Source: an uncultured Haloferula sp.
GTDB taxonomy: Bacteria; Verrucomicrobiota; Verrucomicrobiia; Verrucomicrobiales; Akkermansiaceae
Assembly: GCA_965652295.1 (NCBI GenBank)
Contig: CBFGTS010000018.1
Location: 1-64,000, forward strand
DNA: 64,000 bases
Direction of reading: 5' to 3'
This document shows positions 1 to 9,740 of the stretch, piece after piece; position 1 is the stretch's first letter; every line of letters begins with the position of its first letter. Made by a program: the position numbers and the translations under genes. The notes beneath the pieces are model-generated. The model saw only the letters and a list, made by a program, of their open reading frames with translations. It did not search any database and was not told the DNA's origin.

Positions 1-2
1 CG

Positions 3-473
3 AAGGCGATCACCCCGAGAAGGCTCAATGACATCTATTCGCTACGCTGGAGCATTGAATAGCGCCGAAGGCCTGTAGGCGCTATGGACGTAGGGAGTGG
101 AGCGACCGAAGCCCGCAGGGCGAGCCGCCGGGAGGAGGCGGCGAGTCAAATCAACTTCCGGGCGCTCAAGCAATCCTGCCAGATCCATCGGGCTCTCACC
201 CACAAAAGCGACTACTTTCATCTGGAGGCACTCGTCCTCGCAGCCATGATCTACCAGGTTCTGACGCTGAAACTTCACAACGACCTCTGCCGGAAGCACG
301 GGGCTGGAGGCTGGATGAGCATCGAGAAGATCAGTGATTTTTTCTCCATTTATCTCCTGTCACTCGACCGGTTCGAGGAGCTCCGGGTGTTCGCACCAGA
401 TCTCCGTCACCTCAGATACGAACGAAGACGACGCGCAAACCACTGGCAGTCAATCATTCACTGCTTAGGTTGA
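3..473 (+). pseudogene. IS4-family DDE transposase C-terminal part, interrupted by a 90-nt insertion carrying an in-frame TAG
   Basis: KAITPRRLNDIYSLRWSIE (3-59), TAG at 60-62, then the same frame resumes INFRALKQSCQ... at 150. Removing 90 nt restores RWSIEINFRALK. Confidence 0.8.
59..148. mobile_element. 90-nt hairpin-rich miniature insertion of unknown family
   Basis: Stems ATAGCGCC/GGCGCTAT (59-66/78-85), GCCC-GCA-GGGC and GCCGCC-GGGAGGA-GGCGGC. Precise removal restores the transposase codons ATT GAA ATC. Boundary is ambiguous by 1-2 nt. Confidence 0.7.
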
Positions 474-481
474 CGCGATTG

Positions 482-513
482 GGTCAGGGGTTCTGTGCTC
501 CGGCTTGTTCTGC
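482..513 (-). other. Truncated attC site (R''/L'' arm only) of cassette 2
   Basis: 32-nt exact copy of 1121-1152 (GGTCAGGGGTTCTGTGCTCCGGCTTGTTCTGC). The partner arm is replaced by the IS4 end. Confidence 0.85.
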
Positions 514-816
514 TTTGGTTGTTTGTTCTGGGAGCGGTCTAACCAAGAGGCTTGGACGGTCACCAGCCTTGAAGTGAATGCGGTCAGATCTCAACTTCAG
601 AATAATGTTGAAGATGTCGAACCTTGGATTGCCGTTCTCATCAAGGGCGCGTGGCTGAAAGAGCCACTTACGGATCGGCTTGCCGCCGAGAGTCGAATCA
701 TCGGTCAGTGCGAAGCTCGTTCCCTCAGGCACAACGATTAGAACATGCGCCTCATCGCCAAGATCGAGAACGTGCTCTACACGCACCGGCTGATCTACAA
801 GGTCGTCAATACCCAT
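484..816 (-). CDS. Integron cassette 2, second ORF, hypothetical protein (~110 aa)
   Basis: ATG at 816 (MGIDDLVDQPV...), overlaps the upstream ORF by 11 nt, stop lies inside attC. Lower GC than the backbone. Confidence 0.65.
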   Translation of the reverse strand: MGIDDLVDQPVRVEHVLDLGDEAHVLIVVPEGTSFALTDDSTLGGKPIRKWLFQPRALDENGNPRFDIFNIILKLRSDRIHFKAGDRPSLLVRPLPEQTTKAEQAGAQNP

Positions 817-1021
817 ACTTCGACGGGTTCGATAGGGTTGTATCCACCGACCATTCCGCTTGCTCTCGCGACGCGGCAGCATCCATCAGAAGCTGGATCA
901 TCTTCGTTCGGTCGCGTCCCTTAGCTGCGGCCTCGTAATCGTCAAGGAGCCCACATGCAAAGAGACGCTCGTTGACTGTCATGCCACGAAGCTCTTCCTG
1001 CGATGGTCGGGGCGAATTCAT
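806..1021 (-). CDS. Integron cassette 2, first ORF, hypothetical protein (71 aa)
   Basis: ATG 5 nt after the GTTCTGC core site (GTTCTGC-TGAAA-ATG); MNSPRPSQEELRGMTVNERLFACGLL... Confidence 0.7.
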   Translation of the reverse strand: MNSPRPSQEELRGMTVNERLFACGLLDDYEAAAKGRDRTKMIQLLMDAAASREQAEWSVDTTLSNPSKYGY

Positions 1022-1026
1022 TTTCA

Positions 1027-1152
1027 GCAGAACGTCAGAGGACACAGGACCCCTGACCGGGGGTGCTGCTTCGACTGCGGGTTGGGGTTGTAGTAGTCAT
1101 GACGGCTGGAACTCGCGGCTGGTCAGGGGTTCTGTGCTCCGGCTTGTTCTGC
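1027..1152 (-). other. Complete attC site (126 bp) of cassette 1
   Basis: Minus strand R'' GCAGAAC (1152-1146) ... R' GTTCTGC (1033-1027). Imperfect inverted arms GCAGAAC-AAGCCGGAG-CACAGAACCCCTGACC versus GCAGAAC-GTCAGAGGA-CACAGGACCCCTGACC around a ~60-nt loop. Confidence 0.9.
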
Positions 1153-1491
1153 CTTCATTGTTCGGCAGTCTAGGATTGTAGTGTTGTCTACCCCCATTCC
1201 CTCGATAGCGGCCGTAATCCGGTCCCAGGTCTTCATCATGCTCCCCGGCTTCTCCGTGAACTGCGAAGAAAACTTCCGCCCTTCGTCCGTCAACTGAATC
1301 ATCTTCCCGTCTCTTTGGAGAAGACCCTTCGACTCAGCCCATGCGAATGAGGCTTCTATCTCCTTGTGCGTTGGGACCGCATGGTTGATTCCGTCCGCGA
1401 CTGCCTCGATCTCACGGCGCTTCGCTGGTTGATTGGTCGCTGCCGCCGATGCTGCGTAGAAGATCCACGCGTATGTCTGAGCCTCGGTCAT
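1123..1491 (-). CDS. Integron cassette 1 protein (122 aa), possible winged-helix fold
   Basis: ATG 6 nt after the attI core. The pattern ...KGLLQRDGKMIQLTDEGR resembles a wHTH wing. Stop lies inside attC. Confidence 0.75.
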   Translation of the reverse strand: MTEAQTYAWIFYAASAAATNQPAKRREIEAVADGINHAVPTHKEIEASFAWAESKGLLQRDGKMIQLTDEGRKFSSQFTEKPGSMMKTWDRITAAIEGMGVDNTTILDCRTMKAEQAGAQNP

Positions 1492-1497
1492 TTTTTG

Positions 1498-1518
1498 GCA
1501 GAACAGGTTTTATTAGTA
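1498..1518 (-). other. attI-like primary recombination site
   Basis: Minus strand TACTAATAAAACCT-GTTCTGC directly before cassette 1. The A-rich box plus G/TT core resembles attI1 (CTAAAACAAAGTT), and there is no attC-type inverted partner upstream. Confidence 0.7.
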
Positions 1519-1540
1519 GGGTCGAGGATGGCTATATCCA
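1512..1540 (-). promoter_or_regulatory. Possible Pc-type cassette promoter
   Basis: TGGATA-N16/17-TACTAAT on the minus strand overlapping attI; only a partial sigma70 match. Confidence 0.3.
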
Positions 1541-2084
1541 GCGATCCTTTTCGGGGAGGGTGGCTGGGAATCCTCGATTTCACAAGGATTTTTCCGGCTT
1601 GGGTGCGTATATCGGCTGACGTGGGAGTGTGTTTCGGGGGGACGAAAGCGGGGGGTGATATAGGCGGTCTTTCACTGGTGGTGGGTCGTGGGTGCCGCGG
1701 AGTCGGGCAATGACTATCGTCGCAGGGGATCAAGCCGGGGAGCGAGCGTGCCGGAATGCCAATGAGATGAAGCCGCGGATGGACGGATTCACGCAGAATC
1801 GTCGAGGGCCGAGGCCTCATGCAGGCTTCCGAGCCCCAAGTTGCCTTTTTCTATCACCGAGAAACGGAGATGTAAGGAGATCACGGAGAAGGCAGGATGA
1901 GAGGTTTTCGGACCCGGTGGTCTCGGTCATTTTTAGTGTCTCGATATCCGGAAGAATGCCTCTGCAGCCGCGAGCCACCTCGAAGCCTTCTACCGGAAGG
2001 GACTGTTGGGGTTCACAGGCGAGGCACCGGTGCGGGGGGGACCAAGGTGTCTGCCCGTTTGCGTGGGGTCGCGGGTCTGGGGAG

Positions 2085-3004
2085 TCAGCCGGTGCCGGCG
2101 AGGCGGTCGAGCGGGCTGGTGACGCCGAGGCCGTTGGCACCGACGGCGACGTGAAGGTAGATCTCGGTGGTGGTGATGTCCTCGTGGCCGAGGAGGTCCT
2201 GGATGGTGCGGAGGTCGGCTCCGTCCTCAAGCAGGTGGGTGGCGAAGGAGTGGCGCAGGGCGTGGCTGGTGACGCGTTTCTCGATGCCTGCGGATCTAGT
2301 GTGGTGATCACGAAATCCCGAGACGAAATGAGTGACTGAAAGTTTCTGAGAGTCAGCTCGCTTCGCTCGGCCGGTTTCGAAAGCGCGGCGCTTTTTCCCA
2401 TCTCTGCGTTGCTCCTCGGTCACGGATATTCATCCGCTCCCTCGTCGCGCCTCGATCTTGGAAAAAATCCCTCGCGCATTTCGCCCAGCTATTTCGTGAT
2501 CACCACACTAGCGGCGCGTTTGATGGCTTCGTTGTAAACGGGCCCGAGCATGTGGTGGCGGCGGCGGAGGTTGCATTCCGGATCGACGGAGGTTTGGTGG
2601 GCAGGAAAGAGCCAGAACCATTCGAAGGTTTCTCGGGCGCGGCTGAATTTCCGGGCGAGGGCGTTTGGCATGTGGACCCCTGCGAGGCCGGTTTCCCGGT
2701 CACCTTGCCAGACGGCTCTGGCGTGCTCGATCTGCGAGGCGAGCCGGGTGGCAAGGGACTTGGGCAGGACGGTGGAGCGGTCCTTGTCGCCTTTGCCCTG
2801 ACGGACGGTCAGGGTGCCCCGGCCGATGTCCACGTCCTGAATCCGTAACCGGACGAGTTCGGAGAGGCGCAGGCCGGCACCGTATTGGAGGCGTGCGGCG
2901 AGGGCGTAGCGCGGATCGGTGTGGGTGGTTTCGAGTTTCTCGAAGAGGCGGTGGGTTTCTTGTTTGGAGAGGACGACGGGGATGCGGGTGCCGGTTTTTT
3001 TGAG
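2085..3004 (-). pseudogene. intI: Integron integrase, 5'-truncated and MITE-interrupted
   Basis: RIPVVLS...YGAGLRLSE...GKGDKDR, the integron-specific insertion [37 protein letters not shown]...[13 protein letters not shown]. No start codon or N-terminal domain upstream of ~3004 (in-frame stop near 3087). Confidence 0.92.
2296..2511. mobile_element. MITE (212 bp net insertion) with 21-bp perfect terminal inverted repeats, CTAG at both ends (IS630-like)
   Basis: CTAGTGTGGTGATCACGAAAT (2296-2316) / ATTTCGTGATCACCACACTAG (2491-2511). Removal restores intI codons [13 protein letters not shown] in frame. Confidence 0.92.
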
Positions 3005-3028
3005 GCAGAGGGCCTGCGGGGGAAGGCG

Positions 3029-3223
3029 GTGCCGGTTTAAAAACCGGCGCTCCGTTTTGAAGACGCGGCGGGGGTGCGGGGTTGCCTACCTTTGAGGAAA
3101 GGAAGTTTGTGGGGTGGAGCGATGCCGAATTCATATTCGGCGCTCCTCTTGGAAATGCAGATGAAGAGGGTGCACAGGGTGGCGGGCTCGGGAGGTTGTG
3201 GGACGGGGGCGTCCCACCTCCTA
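3029..3223. repeat. REP-like palindromes beside the intI truncation point
   Basis: GTGCCGGTTTAAAAACCGGCGC (~3029-3050) and GTGGGACGGGGGCGTCCCAC (~3198-3217) hairpins in intergenic DNA. Confidence 0.45.
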
Positions 3224-3311
3224 TGCGAGGCGATCCGGGTGACGAGTGACTTGGGCCTGCGTCAAAGGCTTCTTTACTCCACCCTCTGGAACAGGGCAGG
3301 GTGGAGATGCT

Positions 3312-6300
3312 ATGACCTCCCTCCGCCTTTCAAGCGGCCGTCTTGTCGGGTCGCTTCTGGTCGGCCTTTGTCCGGTCGGCTGCCTTCTGGCCGCGAGCAT
3401 CGGTGCGATCGATCCGCCATCGGGAATGCCGGGGGACACGGTGACGTTGACCGGCAGCTTCGATCCTGCCGGCAGTCATGCGGTCGCACTCGGCGGTATC
3501 GCGGCCGGCGGCGTCGTGGTCACCGATACAACTCTGAGCTTCACCGTGCCCGCCGGGGCGGCTTCGGGGACGATCTCGCTGACCGAGAACGGCGAGGAAA
3601 CCAAATACCCGGTTCCTTTCTTGGTTTCCCGCGAGGTGAGCGGCGTGCTGGTCCCGCCGACGGGGATTTCCGCCATCGGCTTCAAGGTGGTAGGCGGTGA
3701 GGGTGAAAGCGCTACCGCCGTGGACGGCAGCTTCACCAGCGTGGTGTCGAGCGGCAAGCCGACCCTGCTATGGGTGTACAAACCCGGCATGCCGGGGACT
3801 TTTCTCGCGCTGGTGACCGATAGCGACGCGAGCGTCACGGTCGATGCGGCATCGACCGCCCTCGCGCTGGCGGCGGTCAACCCTCTGGTGGGCTTCCGCG
3901 ATTCCGCGGAAATGGACGGCGTCAGGGCGGGGATCGAGGCTCACGAGGACTTCGCGGCGCTGGTCGGGGTGATCGAGGACGCCTTCGCTGGCAGCTACGA
4001 CTACCTCGATGACGCCCGGCTGGACGACCCGCTGACGGCGCTGGCGCTGGCCTCGACCCCGCCGGAGCCGCCGGCCGCCGCGGCGTCGCTGGCTTTCGAG
4101 GATGTTGGTTCGGGCTTTCCCGAGGTGCGGCTGGCGGAGCTGAGCCCGGGCGGGGTGCCGAACGTGTTCGACAGCAAGATCGTGGCCTCGCCGAAGCGCG
4201 GCACGGAGTTCCTGATTCTCGAAAACGGCCGGACTTCGCGCCCCAACACCGTGGACTGGACGATGGAGTTGTTCCGGCTCAGCCCGAGCCAGTTCCCGAA
4301 CGGCTTGAGCGACCTGCTGGCGCTCGACGGCAACTCGCTACTGGAGCCGGCGAACGCCGTGCCTTTGCAGAGCGGCTACGAGCGGGCGGAGCTGCTGACG
4401 GCGAACCTCGACGTGCTCGGCAAGCTGGCTGGCGCGGTCTTCGACGTGGTCAACGGCGTGGTCAAGGAGCGCACCGGCCTCGGGCTTGATCCGCCGAAAA
4501 CCAACCAGTTCGCGATCGACCGGCACGTGGACGAGATCTACCTGCTGCAATCTTACAGCGGCAACCTTCCCAATGGGCTCGGATTCCAGTCCGCAGTGCT
4601 GGAGGCGGGTGACCCGAACAGCCAGTGGGCCTTCGCGCTGGCGGGCAATCTGCTCATCTCCGCGCTGGATGCGGCCGGGGTGTTCGCCGACGCCAAGAGC
4701 GTCACGGGCATCGACAGCGATTTCATCGCCAACCTCAACATCGACCTGGCGAAAACCCTGGCGGTCTATCGCGGTCGCGGTGATCTGGATTTCGGCAGCT
4801 TTCTCGATCTCGCCAAGGCGGCGACCACCTCGGTGATCAAGAGCTACTACAGCCACCTGGTCAGCGAGGACACGGTGGCGGAACTGGCGCCGCGCGCGGC
4901 CAAGGCGATCGGCAAGAGCTTCGACATCATCGGAAAGATTTCCAGCGGAGCGCAGGCAGTCGAGCGACTCACCGGGCTGGGCTTCCAGTCAACCTGGGCG
5001 GTCGAGCGTTCGCTGTTGATCGTGGGCAATCCGTTGCGGCCGTTCATTACCGGAATCTCACCGACCGAGGCGAAGGGAGGGCAGACGGTGACCATCGCCG
5101 GCGGAAACTTTTCCTGGGACCCTGCGGAGCTCTCGGTGGCTTTCTGCGACTTCCACTCGACTTCGGGCGATGTCGCCGCCTCGGTGCCGGCCACCATCAC
5201 GCGCGCCTCGCCGACGCACCTCGACGTCACCGTGCCGGACGCCGCCACCTATCGGGCGAACTTCGCCAACGGGACTTCCTTCCTGTGTGTGACGAAGGAC
5301 GGGGAGGAGGTCTTTTCGACGAATGCCGGCGACGCCGGTGTGTTCACCATGCCGCCTCCGCCGACGATCACCGGACTGGAGCCGGAAGTGGTGACTTCGG
5401 GAGCTGTCATTTCGATCGTCGGCGAGCGTTTCGGGTCGGAAGCGAAGGTCTTCTTCGATGGTTTCACGGAAATCGGAACCTTCCAGAAGACCGCCGACCG
5501 GATCGTCGTGGCGCTGCCCGGTGCGGCGGCTGGCGAGCACACCCTGACGGTCAAAATGGGCGACGACACTAGCGAGGCCTTCACCTTCGAGGTGGTGCGA
5601 CCCGAGGACGTGCCGCGGGTGAAGCCCGGCGGGGTCTCGATCCAGATCACGGAAATGACGATGACCAACTCGCCGGACGGCCAGGTCAGCCTGCTGGAAG
5701 CCTTGCTGATCGCCAACGGCACCCTGGGGCGGCCGATCGAGCAGCATGTCGAGGGCGAGCCCGCCGGCATTTCCCGGGAAACCGACTTCGTGTTCGGCGA
5801 CGACGAGTTCGGGCTCGGCGGTGGGGCCGCGGTGCGGGACACCATCAGCTCCAGTCTGGGCGCCGGGGTTTTCCCGATCTCCGCGGCGCTGCCCGGCCTC
5901 GCGGCAGGAGATGACATCGATCTCGACGGCGCGACACTCGATGGCACCGGCGCGCCCGGCGGTGCCTTCGTGCTGGACGGTGCCGACGACGTGGTGCTCG
6001 AGGACGTGATCCTCAAGAACTTCCCCGGCGACGGCATCGTGGTGAGCAACGACACCCAGGGCGCGGAAGTCCAGCGGGTCACCGTCGATGGCGTCGGCGG
6101 CGCGGGGGTGGTCGTGGACAACCTTTGCACCTTCAACACCTTCACTACCATTGAGGTGTTGAACGTCGGCGGCGAGGGACTGCGGGTGAGCGGCGACTCC
6201 GACGAGAACCTTTTCAGCTCTTTTCAGATCGACGGCACCGGAAGCCATGGCCTGCGGATCGACGGCGGGAGCGATCACAATCAATTCAACAGTTTCACCA

Positions 6301-9300
6301 TTCACGACTGCGGTGCGGACGGGCTGCGCCTTGCCGGAGGCTCTGAACGCAATCTTTTCGGGATCTTGCTGGAGATCAGCGAAATGACGGACGCGGGGAT
6401 CCGGTTGACGGGTGCCGGAACGCGTTACAACCGGCTGGCCGAGACGGTGACCAGCGGATCGGACGCGGTGCGGGTGCTGCCGGCGGTGCGGGACTGCGGA
6501 ACCCAGGGTGTGGCGATCGAGGAGGGGGCGAGCTACAACGTCGTGGCCCCGCGTTTCATTTCCAACTGCACCGGAGGAGGCGTGCGGGTGAGCGGAGCGG
6601 CGACGACCCACAACACCATCGGGCATCCCTACCGGCGGTTTCCGGGGGACTTTAACCCGGTGTTCTTCAGCCTGATCGCCGACAACGGCAGCCACGGTGT
6701 GGTGCTCACCGGCGGCTCCGGTCAGACGTTGGTGAGCGGCATCAATCTCTACAACAACCAGGGCGACGGGGTGCGGGTCGATGGCAGTTCGTTCAACTCG
6801 CTGCTGTCATTTCGCAGCGGCGTCCAGGATTTCATCGAGGACACCGATCCGGTCGCCTCGCCGAGCACCGGCGCCTCGGTGCGGCTGACGAACGCTTCGT
6901 CCAACAACGTCATCGGCACGGTGATCGAGGTGGTGGTGTCGAACTTCGGCAGCAACCCGACGGAGGATTTCATCAATCACTTCGCCAACGACCTGGGCGG
7001 CGGAGTGATCATCGAGGGCGACTCCGACCGCAACCATGTCTATGGCACGCGGATCGGCAGCGTGGGATTCGAAGACTACCACGGCGCGGTCGGAGGTCCG
7101 GGCGTGGTCTTGCGTGGCGGCGCCTCGGAGAACCGCTTGGGCGGCGGCAGTGATTACGACGAGCAGATCTTCATCGCCTCCTGCGTGGAGGCGGCGGTCG
7201 TGATCGATGGCGCGGACACCACCGGCAACGAACTGGCCGGCCTGGAGATCGGCCGTTTTCCGGACGGGGTTGCTCCCGAACGTTTGCCGGCGCTGGGAAT
7301 TCATTTGAGAAATGGCACCCGCGGCAACCAGATCGGCGTCATCGGGCCGATGGACAAGGATCTGAGTTTCGGCCCCCGGCGGGAATCGGTATCGGTGGTG
7401 GGGGCCCGGGGACCGGGACTGTGGCTGGAGGCCTGCGGCGGATCGGTGGGTACGGATGGGGAGATGTCGCTGCCTAACGTGGTGCATAACTGTGCCTTCA
7501 ACTCCTGCGAGACGGGCATCCTGATCAGTGACGATGCGATGGCCAATGTGATCGGCGGTACGCGTGGCGGCGGGCCGGAGTCGGATGGCTTCGTGAACTT
7601 CAACGACGTCTACACCGAGGAGAACAACAGCGTATCCGGTTCGACGGTGGCGGGGCTGCGTTTTTCCAACATGAACCACGCCAGCCCGCTGCTGCGCAAC
7701 GTGATCCAGAATCTCTCGATTTCGGGAGCCTTCGGGTCGCTGCCGCCCAGCCTGGATCTGGCGGCGGGTCCGCCGGATGGCTGCGGGATCCTGATCGATC
7801 CGGATTGCTCGGACGTGGTGGTGGGCGAAACGAGGAATGTCGGCATTTCGATCACCAACAGCTTGGTCGGTGCCTACATCGACGGCTCGGAAGGCAATCT
7901 GATCCGCGCGCTCGACCTTTCCTCCTTCGGCCAGATGGCGGCGGGGATCGTCGTGCGCGGCGGCAGCCAGAACGTGATCGGAGAGCCGGGCGCCGGCGCG
8001 AACCGGATTCGTTTCGTCGGCGCGGGGTCGCTGCCGAGTTGTGGCATCGCGCTGGTGGACCATGCGGACGAGAACACGGTGCAGGCGAGCCGGATCGAGT
8101 TCGGCAGCGGGGTGGGGATCGGCATTTCGCAGTCGGCGCTCAACCTGATCGGCGGGGCGGGCCGGCTGGCGGGCAACGAGATCCTCGGCCACACCCTGAG
8201 CGGGGTGGAAATTGACGGCAACCTGGCTGTCGGCAACCGCGTGCAGGGGAACTTCGTCGGGGTCGCCCGCAACGGCGCGCTGGACGACCCGGTCAACGGA
8301 AACTTCGGCAACCTCGAGGATGGGGTGCGGGTGACGGGTGGCGCGAGCGGGAATCTGATCGGCGGGCGCTACGAGGCGAATCGGGCAGGGGCGAGCGTCC
8401 AGGTGAGCGGACCGGTGATTCCGGTGCCGACACCCAACGCGATCACCCAGAGCGGGATGGCCGGGGTGGCGATCGATGGCTCCGCCTCCGATGGAAATTC
8501 GATTCTTTCGAACTCGATTTACGGCAACTCCGGCACGGGGATCGAGCTGAGATCGGCAGGCAACGACGACCTTCCCGCACCGACGGGGAGTTATGCGACG
8601 GGCACCGCCGCGGGGATGGTCGATGGTTCGGTGGCGGTCGGCAGCCGGGTGCAGGTCTTCAGCGATGCGGGCGAGCAGGGCGAAGTGCTGATCGGCGAAG
8701 CGCTGGTTCGGACCGGCGGTGCCTGGACCGCGACCTCACTGGCACCGGCGCCCTTTGCGAACATCACCGCGACGGTCACCGATGCCGTCAGCGGGGCGAC
8801 CTCGCCCTTCGGGCTCATGACCACTCCGGTCTCGACCTTTGAGGTGCGACGCGCCGGCGGTGGGGCGCCCATCGCCCGCACGACGGATCTTCTCGGCGAC
8901 GTCGTCGTCCAGCGCATCGCCCTGGAGGCAAACGGAGCGGATGTCCGGGTGACCGGTCTGACTTTCGCTGCTTCAGGGAGCCTGGATGAAACCACCGGTC
9001 TGAACAGTGTGCGGTTGATGCGCGACAACAACGCCGACGGACAGGTTGACGCCGGCGACTCCCTGCTGCGGGGCGGGATGGCCTTCGATGCCGATGACGG
9101 GATGGTGGCGTTCGGTGAGCTTGGCGAGGTGATCGCCAACGGTGAAACGCAGGAATGGTTGGTGGTCTATGAACCGGCGGCGACACCTCCGGCGGACGGC
9201 ACGACCTTCAGTCTTTCGCTGGCGGAAAGCGGTGCGGTCGAGGCGACGACCTTCCTTCCGGCGGGGCTCGACGTGACGCCGGTGAATCCTTTCCCGGTGC

Positions 9301-9740
9301 GCTCCGACGAGTTTACGGTCGGGCCAAGCGGCGGGCTGGAGTTCGACACCTTCATCGCGACGGCCTTTCCCGGCGAGACCGACCCGTCGATCATCGGCCG
9401 CTTGGCCGATCCTGATGGCGACGGCATCATCAACCTCTTGGAATGGATTCTCGGCGGCGATCCGAGCGTCATGGATCGGGCTCAGATTTCACCGCGACTG
9501 GTCGAGGCGACGGGCGGCGGCCTGGAGTTCACCTTCCGCCGCCGCGAGGGGCTCCCGGCGGGGACGGTGACCGACGTGACGGTATCGGAGGCACTGGCCG
9601 GCTTCGCGCCCGACGCCACGGTCACGGGTGTCCCGGTGGTGATTTCGAACGGCGACGGCACCGAGACGGTGACAGTGCCGGTCAGCGGGCCGCCTGACAA
9701 AGCCAAGGTGTTCCTGCGGCTGGAGGTGTCGGCTCCGTAA
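3312..9740 (+). CDS. Large secreted/surface protein: three IPT/TIG domains, CSLREA-like motif, parallel beta-helix repeats, C-terminal DxDGDG...FxRLxV domain
   Basis: 2142-aa ORF from ATG 3312 with GGAG upstream and a signal-like N-terminus. ITGISPTEAKGGQTVTIAGGNF-type motifs, DGQVSLLEAL, many G-V/I-x-I-x-G...N-x-I-G repeats. Confidence 0.85.
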   Translation: MTSLRLSSGRLVGSLLVGLCPVGCLLAASIGAIDPPSGMPGDTVTLTGSFDPAGSHAVALGGIAAGGVVVTDTTLSFTVPAGAASGTISLTENGEETKYPVPFLVSREVSGVLVPPTGISAIGFKVVGGEGESATAVDGSFTSVVSSGKPTLLWVYKPGMPGTFLALVTDSDASVTVDAASTALALAAVNPLVGFRDSAEMDGVRAGIEAHEDFAALVGVIEDAFAGSYDYLDDARLDDPLTALALASTPPEPPAAAASLAFEDVGSGFPEVRLAELSPGGVPNVFDSKIVASPKRGTEFLILENGRTSRPNTVDWTMELFRLSPSQFPNGLSDLLALDGNSLLEPANAVPLQSGYERAELLTANLDVLGKLAGAVFDVVNGVVKERTGLGLDPPKTNQFAIDRHVDEIYLLQSYSGNLPNGLGFQSAVLEAGDPNSQWAFALAGNLLISALDAAGVFADAKSVTGIDSDFIANLNIDLAKTLAVYRGRGDLDFGSFLDLAKAATTSVIKSYYSHLVSEDTVAELAPRAAKAIGKSFDIIGKISSGAQAVERLTGLGFQSTWAVERSLLIVGNPLRPFITGISPTEAKGGQTVTIAGGNFSWDPAELSVAFCDFHSTSGDVAASVPATITRASPTHLDVTVPDAATYRANFANGTSFLCVTKDGEEVFSTNAGDAGVFTMPPPPTITGLEPEVVTSGAVISIVGERFGSEAKVFFDGFTEIGTFQKTADRIVVALPGAAAGEHTLTVKMGDDTSEAFTFEVVRPEDVPRVKPGGVSIQITEMTMTNSPDGQVSLLEALLIANGTLGRPIEQHVEGEPAGISRETDFVFGDDEFGLGGGAAVRDTISSSLGAGVFPISAALPGLAAGDDIDLDGATLDGTGAPGGAFVLDGADDVVLEDVILKNFPGDGIVVSNDTQGAEVQRVTVDGVGGAGVVVDNLCTFNTFTTIEVLNVGGEGLRVSGDSDENLFSSFQIDGTGSHGLRIDGGSDHNQFNSFTIHDCGADGLRLAGGSERNLFGILLEISEMTDAGIRLTGAGTRYNRLAETVTSGSDAVRVLPAVRDCGTQGVAIEEGASYNVVAPRFISNCTGGGVRVSGAATTHNTIGHPYRRFPGDFNPVFFSLIADNGSHGVVLTGGSGQTLVSGINLYNNQGDGVRVDGSSFNSLLSFRSGVQDFIEDTDPVASPSTGASVRLTNASSNNVIGTVIEVVVSNFGSNPTEDFINHFANDLGGGVIIEGDSDRNHVYGTRIGSVGFEDYHGAVGGPGVVLRGGASENRLGGGSDYDEQIFIASCVEAAVVIDGADTTGNELAGLEIGRFPDGVAPERLPALGIHLRNGTRGNQIGVIGPMDKDLSFGPRRESVSVVGARGPGLWLEACGGSVGTDGEMSLPNVVHNCAFNSCETGILISDDAMANVIGGTRGGGPESDGFVNFNDVYTEENNSVSGSTVAGLRFSNMNHASPLLRNVIQNLSISGAFGSLPPSLDLAAGPPDGCGILIDPDCSDVVVGETRNVGISITNSLVGAYIDGSEGNLIRALDLSSFGQMAAGIVVRGGSQNVIGEPGAGANRIRFVGAGSLPSCGIALVDHADENTVQASRIEFGSGVGIGISQSALNLIGGAGRLAGNEILGHTLSGVEIDGNLAVGNRVQGNFVGVARNGALDDPVNGNFGNLEDGVRVTGGASGNLIGGRYEANRAGASVQVSGPVIPVPTPNAITQSGMAGVAIDGSASDGNSILSNSIYGNSGTGIELRSAGNDDLPAPTGSYATGTAAGMVDGSVAVGSRVQVFSDAGEQGEVLIGEALVRTGGAWTATSLAPAPFANITATVTDAVSGATSPFGLMTTPVSTFEVRRAGGGAPIARTTDLLGDVVVQRIALEANGADVRVTGLTFAASGSLDETTGLNSVRLMRDNNADGQVDAGDSLLRGGMAFDADDGMVAFGELGEVIANGETQEWLVVYEPAATPPADGTTFSLSLAESGAVEATTFLPAGLDVTPVNPFPVRSDEFTVGPSGGLEFDTFIATAFPGETDPSIIGRLADPDGDGIINLLEWILGGDPSVMDRAQISPRLVEATGGGLEFTFRRREGLPAGTVTDVTVSEALAGFAPDATVTGVPVVISNGDGTETVTVPVSGPPDKAKVFLRLEVSAP

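Follow-up and report, generated by a model that had tools for sequence, protein, structure and literature searches.

Introduction

The attC sites of integrons are read by integrases through structure more than through sequence. Here we analyse a 64,000-nt stretch of DNA from an uncultured Haloferula sp. (contig CBFGTS010000018.1 of assembly GCA_965652295.1, positions 1 to 64,000, forward strand), the whole of which is hereafter called the window. Our reading, to which we give a probability of about 0.75, is that the window opens on a decayed chromosomal integron with three unrelated insertions: an insertion sequence (IS) of the IS4 family lying against half an attC site, a 212-bp miniature inverted-repeat transposable element (MITE) and a 90-nt mini-element. 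The IS4 would belong to a Verrucomicrobiales lineage fixed at one attC position and in one orientation, likely as its transposase recognises extended sequence of the R''/L'' arm.

Mobile elements specialised on attC have been described. Elements of the IS1111-attC group (ISKpn4, ISPst6; IS110 family) resemble the present lineage in sitting at one specific attC position, but they use an RNA-guided DEDD recombinase (PMC11187229), whereas the IS4 lineage has a DDE transposase, terminal inverted repeats and, in its clean cases, 10-bp duplications. That group is recognised by its IS110-family DEDD recombinase and by the lack of a target duplication; the present transposase is of the DDE_Tnp_1/IS4 type. 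Group IIC-attC introns are also specialised on attC (PMC8876359). They are retroelements, whereas the IS4 lineage is a DNA transposon inserting at the inner end of the R''/L'' arm. An Rfam scan of window positions 1-3400 returned two chance lncRNA matches only and no Rfam family, and no other search for guide RNAs was made. Among the matches listed, none was an RNA data set holding the sequence.

Within the IS4 family, duplications are about 10 bp long and some members have strong target-arm specificity (PMC2266710). The lineage shares with the IS231 and ISH8 subgroups a single open reading frame (ORF), the DDE and YREK residues, a CAT left end, a length of about 1.4 kb and, in its clean cases, a duplication of about 10 bp. 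It differs from them in its right end, CAAT and not CAT, and in its attC target, ISH8 being described without target specificity (PMC2266710). With 5'-CAT not found at both ends, we file the lineage in neither subgroup. That IS4 review mentions neither attC nor integrons (0 mentions; PMC2266710), and no report of an attC-targeting IS4 was found in the literature searched, a scope outside which lay ISfinder, subscription journals and supplements. The IS4 lineage is likely a further kind of attC-homing element, apparently undescribed.

An IS4 element against half an attC site

The window opens contig C18 of a 4.37-Mb genome in 35 contigs, G000 (C-numbers are its contigs, other G-numbers other genomes, L-numbers the individual loci or copies compared, and X-numbers the sequencing runs whose contigs were searched). 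From left to right it holds the last third of the IS4 transposase, the IS right end, half an attC, two cassettes, an attI-like site and a remnant of the integrase gene intI. Window base 1 is also the contig start, so that the left end of the IS and the other attC half lie outside the assembled sequence. The features of the IS and its target are the following.

3-473, + strand: IS4-family DDE transposase, 3' third (matching residues 300-425 or so of relative P0001, which has 425 aa); the contig start truncates it and the 90-nt element splits it
60-149, + strand: 90-nt hairpin mini-element; empty allele on C4, both alleles in run X3 (alignment A2, model R1)
464-481, + strand: IS4 right inverted repeat, whose ATTG terminus is typical of the lineage associated with attC
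482-513, + strand: attC R''/L'' arm (bottom strand), its first 10 nt (482-491) being the presumed target duplication; arm profile score 32.6
1027-1152, + strand: intact 126-nt attC (bottom strand = +), from its hairpin fold and a structural scan

A preliminary description of the locus had placed an IS4 in an attC, and rightly so: the transposase 3' third and the right end at 464-481 directly abut the arm at 482-513. Over 42 nt, this half-site shares 93% identity with the intact attC at 1027-1152. The latter has R'' and R' boxes with AAC/GTT, lies after the cassette ORFs and folds into a bottom-strand hairpin (z -4.26 on the + strand against -1.48 on the other strand). Throughout, attC sites were called with a home-made scan and profile, not with a curated covariance model.

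Family tests were run on P0001 (81% identical to the C4 allele), a full-length relative of the enzyme whose last third the window holds. It scores 174.5 bits with NF033592 (cut-off 115) and matches PF01609, and the structure model matches the Tn5 transposase (E 1e-10). The Y-2-R-3-E-6-K signature (Y311, R314, E318, K325) is invariant in alignment A1 and present in the C4 allele. Full-length relatives have 420-432 aa, and full copies of the lineage measure 1381-1472 bp between their ends, with terminal inverted repeats, within the 1.2-1.8 kb of IS4 elements. The attC-associated elements end in CATT on the left and CAAT on the right; sister elements mostly have CATT at both ends. The nearest plasmid matches are IS231-like (27-29% identity). 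Named relatives are mostly Verrucomicrobiales, with one locus (L081) labelled as a gammaproteobacterial metagenome-assembled genome (MAG).

One position and one orientation in attC

The IS4 in attC reflects a lineage-wide pattern of apparent targeting and not an accident of the window locus, a point absent from the preliminary description. In G000, both right ends (2/2; C18, C4) abut an attC R''/L'' arm, and all three left ends (3/3; C9, C14, C30) follow the rest of an attC. Further copies came from protein alignment in metagenomes (14 loci) and in 301 family genomes, from a right-end pattern, free of flank bases, that was run over the genome collection (13 IS ends among 19 matches) and, later, from searching 401 genomes of the order with a pattern (17 matches, 4 new IS ends). 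Right flanks were scored with an arm profile built from 18 IS-free attC sites, for which 100,000 random positions served as calibration (cut-off p<0.001). Initial attC scans, being too strict, gave 3 and 4 matches, a looser scan gave the training set, and a regular-expression scan was mostly noise. Dropped before counting were duplicates (L039, L075, L085, L201 and nine ends seen twice), a locus with a right flank of 14 nt (L032), chance pattern matches without IS context (L067, L070, L072, L080, L084, L198) and L068.

The score of the window arm, 32.6, was reached by none of the 100,000 random positions. Among non-redundant right flanks of ATTG-ending elements, 19 of 27 pass, the arm end falling always at +32 or +33. 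The later search added three of its four new ends, for a total of 22/31, or 20/29 without G000; none of the 15 right flanks of sister IS4 elements passes. All passing insertions lie 32-33 nt from the R'' outer end and in one orientation, with the transposase on the bottom strand and the right end towards R''. On the left side, an R' arm lies 101-107 nt upstream in 11 of the 15 scorable cases at p<0.02, and at 60 nt in one.

The attC-associated transposases all fall in one branch of a quick maximum-likelihood tree (SH-aLRT, an approximate likelihood-ratio branch support, 96). Their identities to P0001 range from 35 to 81%, so that they do not go back to one inherited insertion, and both the attC sequences and the neighbouring cassettes differ between loci. 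Seven lineage-diagnostic residues (V116, S118, M119, N129, N130, R162, Q166) are almost invariant within the lineage and uncommon among sister elements. They lie close together in the catalytic core, behind the first Asp and at 162-166, a region that presumably touches target DNA, as in other DDE enzymes.

A perfect 10-bp duplication within one attC is present at L029, L038 and L076, and one of 9/10 at L199. The 10-mer alone cannot be the target: G000 has 222 matches to its pattern, GGYAGSSGGT, and an identical copy also stands in the R' arm of L038 and L076. The R' arm of several IS-free sites contains it as well, and no passing insertion lies in an R' arm. T dominates flank positions 10 and 11 (19/23 and 17/23), where the R'' arm has bases absent from the R' arm.

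The targeting, inferred from genomes, would work as follows. Transposition would be cut-and-paste with a 10-bp stagger. The transposase would read bases to either side of the 10-mer, among them the T at positions 10-11 by which the R'' arm can be told apart. The duplication would rebuild the arm, so that both arms survive whole and the IS lies in the variable terminal loop, enlarging it to about 1.5 kb. Such a loop would sharply lower, perhaps not abolish, recombination by the integrase IntI. Long variable terminal structures lower replicative recombination by up to 4 logs and have little effect after conjugation (PMC8946536). Shutdown of the IS4-bearing attC is likely but not certain. The loops in the study of variable terminal structures are said to be far shorter than 1.4 kb.

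Some side observations concern IS4 ends and fragments. A 140-bp transposase-less element with the same IS4 ends lies in non-attC DNA of an Acidobacteriota MAG (L068). Two 5' fragments in G000, at C9:194448 and C14:~57900, break at the same nucleotide (about codon 50) and then run into differing DNA. C14 was considered as the missing left half of the window copy, which could not be established: the same 10-mer flanks its IS left end, but the copy is cut at about codon 50 and runs into another array. A consensus scan found no outward promoter at the left end of L038. At the ends of C11, C16 and C30, another repeated end starts directly after GGACCGACCC-like words and is possibly an IS targeting a repeat like the repetitive extragenic palindromic (REP) ones.

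An integron remnant with open cassette frames

The remainder of the locus reads as follows.

484-1045, - strand: cassette 2, with two open ORFs that overlap (listed as 484-882 and 806-1045, the true starts probably lying further in), family not recognised
1123-1491, - strand: cassette 1 ORF, 122 aa, no recognised family
1493-1991, no strand: attI-like site (about 1498-1520) and leader, from the position before the first cassette, a GTT triplet and a match upstream of intact intI in L156 and L157
2085-2297, - strand: intI remnant, C-terminal 70 codons (TIGR02249 positions 252-315)
2299-2508, no strand: 210-bp IS630-type MITE in a CTAG site, between duplicated TA (2297-2298, 2509-2510)
2510-3004, - strand: middle part of the intI remnant (165 codons), with some 185 codons absent at the N-terminus
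2999-3146, no strand: dispersed repeat at the intI truncation point, the junction being spanned by contigs of runs X1, X3 and X7

The two cassettes carry three ORFs, all without internal stops, as had been described before; none of the three matches Pfam or NCBIfam. The window lacks a complete integron, having no intact intI beside its attI and cassettes. The two intI pieces cover TIGR02249 positions 94-250 and 252-315, with 171 and 100 bits against a cut-off of 265, and the G000 assembly contains no other IntI. Chromosomal integrons often lack intI (PMC12444791). Without its about 185 N-terminal codons, the remnant compares with open frames of 444-511 aa at the best matches in the genus. Intact IntI proteins of the genus (L151-L161) have an extra N-terminal region of about 100 aa relative to the TIGR02249 profile.

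Of the 11 fetched relative loci, two (L156, L157) show the leader, and in both it lies upstream of, and divergent from, intI. Judged against these two, the intI remnant is inverted relative to attI, and its 5' deletion ends at the dispersed repeat. A reverse-orientation integron had been considered and was dropped on the arrangement in L156 and L157. The integrase gene carries two independent lesions, the split by the MITE and a 5' deletion plus inversion. Since the deletion junction is spanned by contigs of X1, X3 and X7, and the MITE-intI junctions by those of X1, X3, X7 and X8, both lesions occur beyond one assembly. Elsewhere in G000, whole or partial copies of attI and leader occur at C4:218888, C7:182749, C11:87600 and C14:55325, none with an intact integrase; the C14 copy retains the first ~40 codons of intI. 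Beside the integron remnant, window positions 3246-9740 encode a 2164-aa protein with IPT/TIG and beta-helix domains.

The MITE in intI

A MITE in intI had been noted before and is confirmed: the integron-integrase frame is interrupted by a net insertion of 212 bp that carries terminal inverted repeats (2296-2511, CTAG on both sides). Its target duplication is TA and not CTAG as first proposed, the C1 copy ending in TA then A, and an assignment as an IS5/IS701 MITE with a 4-bp CTAG duplication was dropped on this ground. An element in genome G444, whose end matches that of the MITE at 18/19 positions, encodes an IS630 transposase (NF033545, 112 bits with neighbours, cut-off 100). Judged from sequence, the insert is an IS630-type MITE. 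MITEs derived from IS630 are a familiar kind, with recognised family traits, and the one in the window has the TA duplication in CTAG, the long inverted repeats and the lack of an ORF, with nothing unusual.

The preliminary description had proposed a bias of such elements towards mobility genes. When the copies were mapped, G000 held six full ones and a few fragments, and one of the six lies in a mobility gene (intI). Of the others, with flanks read by eye, two lie at TAG stops, one falls within the final codons of an ORF and two are intergenic. A preference for mobility genes is not apparent; CTAG is rare in G000 (966 sites). The MITE is likely an IS630 passenger that would accept any tolerated CTAG or CTAA site. 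Of 150 family genomes, 14 carry related MITEs whose ends differ. In addition, MITEs with quite different ends (L093-L120) share one internal palindromic motif with the window MITE (2390-2460). No contig skipping the MITE was listed in four runs, where contigs show presence and not absence.

The mini-element in the transposase gene

The third insertion had been located at the active-site motif of the transposase. It indeed lies directly after the catalytic Glu of Y-R-E-K, and another IS copy, located where contig C4 ends, has the site empty. The insert is in frame and opens with TAG; because this stop directly follows the catalytic Glu, the transposase encoded in the window is predicted to be inactive. 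Both alleles occur among the contigs of run X3, which stems from another study than X1, the best-matching run. The IS contig of X1 shows the empty site only, which bubble removal can cause.

The mini-element has no terminal inverted repeats. It follows (G)AA and ends in TCAA, with a junction ambiguous by AA; the TCAA end is present in 15 of 16 aligned copies, and GAA or CAA precedes most copies. The target is about SAA, and the TTGAAATC site first proposed was dropped. Hairpins are present, but the window copy folds no better than shuffled sequences (z -1.19); there may be a 2-nt AA duplication or core. Non-autonomous IS200/IS605 elements of the kind called palindrome-associated transposable elements (PATEs) have subterminal hairpins, a TCAA right end and no duplication. 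The TCAA end and the lack of inverted repeats suggest IS200/IS605-like, single-stranded movement. The element would likely have been moved as single-stranded DNA by an HUH (IS200/IS605-like) enzyme acting in trans. It resembles PATEs, other non-autonomous IS200/IS605 derivatives and REP sequences with their associated transposases (REP/RAYT) in being small and hairpin-rich, with no inverted ends, a TCAA right end and precise insertion after a short word. It differs from them in a target of only about SAA, in AA ambiguity at both junctions, in lacking an identified TnpA or RAYT partner and in having no Rfam match.

Relatives were found in 23 of 200 family genomes by BLAST, and in 49 of 150, including G000, with a covariance model built from 16 copies. 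A bias towards mobility genes, also proposed for this element, stands only in part. G000 has three copies, in the window, in an IS110-like remnant on C14 and in a type I methyltransferase-like ORF on C1 (the last two labels being our own reading of translations), and two of the three lie in transposase genes. Across the family the share is only 6/30 (30 fetched sites, one per genome, with 49 of the candidate frames scanned against Pfam): an integrase (L123), IS91-type enzymes (L126, L140 and L148, the last classed by its likeness to L126), an intron reverse transcriptase (RT; L129) and the window. Another six are in other genes (moeA, cfa, RHS twice, RhuM and the 23S intervening sequence protein family), and 18/30 have no Pfam family. 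Leaving out the loci used to build the model and their near-copies gives 3/21 sites. Next to the usual genome share of mobile-element enzyme genes, this looks high. The mini-element looks modestly enriched in mobile-element enzymes, an excess that survival in dispensable DNA could explain in part. It and the MITE probably persist here because the genes struck were dispensable.

Some copies (L005, L018, L138, L014) are in frame and open; a cyclopropane-fatty-acid synthase gene, for example, keeps a continuous frame. The type I methyltransferase-like gene at C1:474920-476350 apparently contains three small structured insertions of different kinds, among them a variant of the 90-nt family.

Weighing of the alternatives

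Several observations weigh against attC targeting by the IS4 lineage and against the account of the other two insertions. The attC-associated branch also holds three non-attC copies and a long-branch non-attC sister row (L034). Nine of the 31 right flanks fall below the cut-off; three of these have an attC half on the left (L026, L028, L029) and two are borderline (L024, L082), while L025, L031, L071 and L195 have no attC on either side seen. Only 3 of 16 two-sided loci show the perfect 10-bp duplication and 12 are mismatched. Assembly chimeras explain some mismatches, the left flank of L027 being joined to a different right flank in L196. L062, in a one-contig genome (G210), still mismatches and is not explained in this way. 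The attC sites used for training come from the same loci and genomes as the test flanks, and related copies are not independent of one another. In G000, neither an IS630 transposase above the cut-off nor the exact partner of the MITE was found. The enzyme for the 90-nt element was not found, an autonomous partner not having been searched for directly. As a side observation, L062 is an IS4 with an internal deletion; its right 10-mer pairs with the far arm of the attC, and its left 10-mer comes from another attC type.

The main rival, which we consider improbable though somewhat ahead of the others, is that what the lineage reads is attC structure (an extruded hairpin, or the single-stranded bottom strand with its unpaired T) more than duplex sequence. 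Within the duplicated 10-mer the inner bases vary, yet the position and the choice of arm are fixed, and the T at positions 10-11 stands where R'' has bases that R' lacks. The gammaproteobacterial label of L081 and the position of L034, of the same branch, in another palindrome point the same way. On the other hand, clean 10-bp duplications fit a staggered attack on duplex DNA, a G-rich consensus is common to the targets, and nearly all matches lie in one attC family of about 125 nt.

Less probable still is the view of the preliminary description that the three insertions are one phenomenon, either small hyperparasites seeking mobility genes or a nested, coordinated shutdown selected to freeze the array. 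The 90-nt family does occur in IS91, IS4, intI and RT genes, and both intI lesions are common to contigs from several studies. But the insertions are unrelated, with three chemistries (an IS630 TA duplication, an IS4 10-bp duplication and an end-less AA/TCAA element); intI has in addition been deleted at its 5' side and inverted, the MITE is in a mobility gene in one case of six, and housekeeping genes are struck too. The nested insertion picture is real but mostly ordinary decay.

Least probable, by a narrow margin, is the absence of true targeting, by which a loose GG-N6-GT preference would combine with survival in neutral cassette arrays: sister-element duplications also begin with GG, arrays tolerate insertions and at least four lineage copies lie outside attC, but only 14 of the 6,010 GG-N6-GTTS sites in G000 have TTGTT at attC spacing, and offset, arm and orientation are constant in 22 flanks, against 0/15 in the sister group under the same selection.

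Discussion

We return to the reading of a decayed integron with an IS4 lineage that recognises the R''/L'' arm. The MITE and the 90-nt element are of lesser importance than the IS4 result. A bolder version, which we advance tentatively and doubt more than we believe, is that a DDE cut-and-paste lineage evolved to home to attC, choosing one arm of a near-palindrome and leaving both arms whole. The IS would travel as a passenger inside the variable loop, still movable by IntI when the DNA is single-stranded, and copies of it would allow cassette arrays to be cut and reshuffled in the absence of an integrase.

Described attC targeters use an RNA guide or retrohoming; if true, the IS4 case would show how a plain DDE enzyme acquires site specificity, and it offers a sister group as a built-in control together with a short list of candidate residues. 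Because the halves of an IS4-split site lie about 1.4 kb apart, attC finders will miss such sites. For the Verrucomicrobia, IS4 insertion would be a route by which chromosomal cassette arrays are split and silenced.

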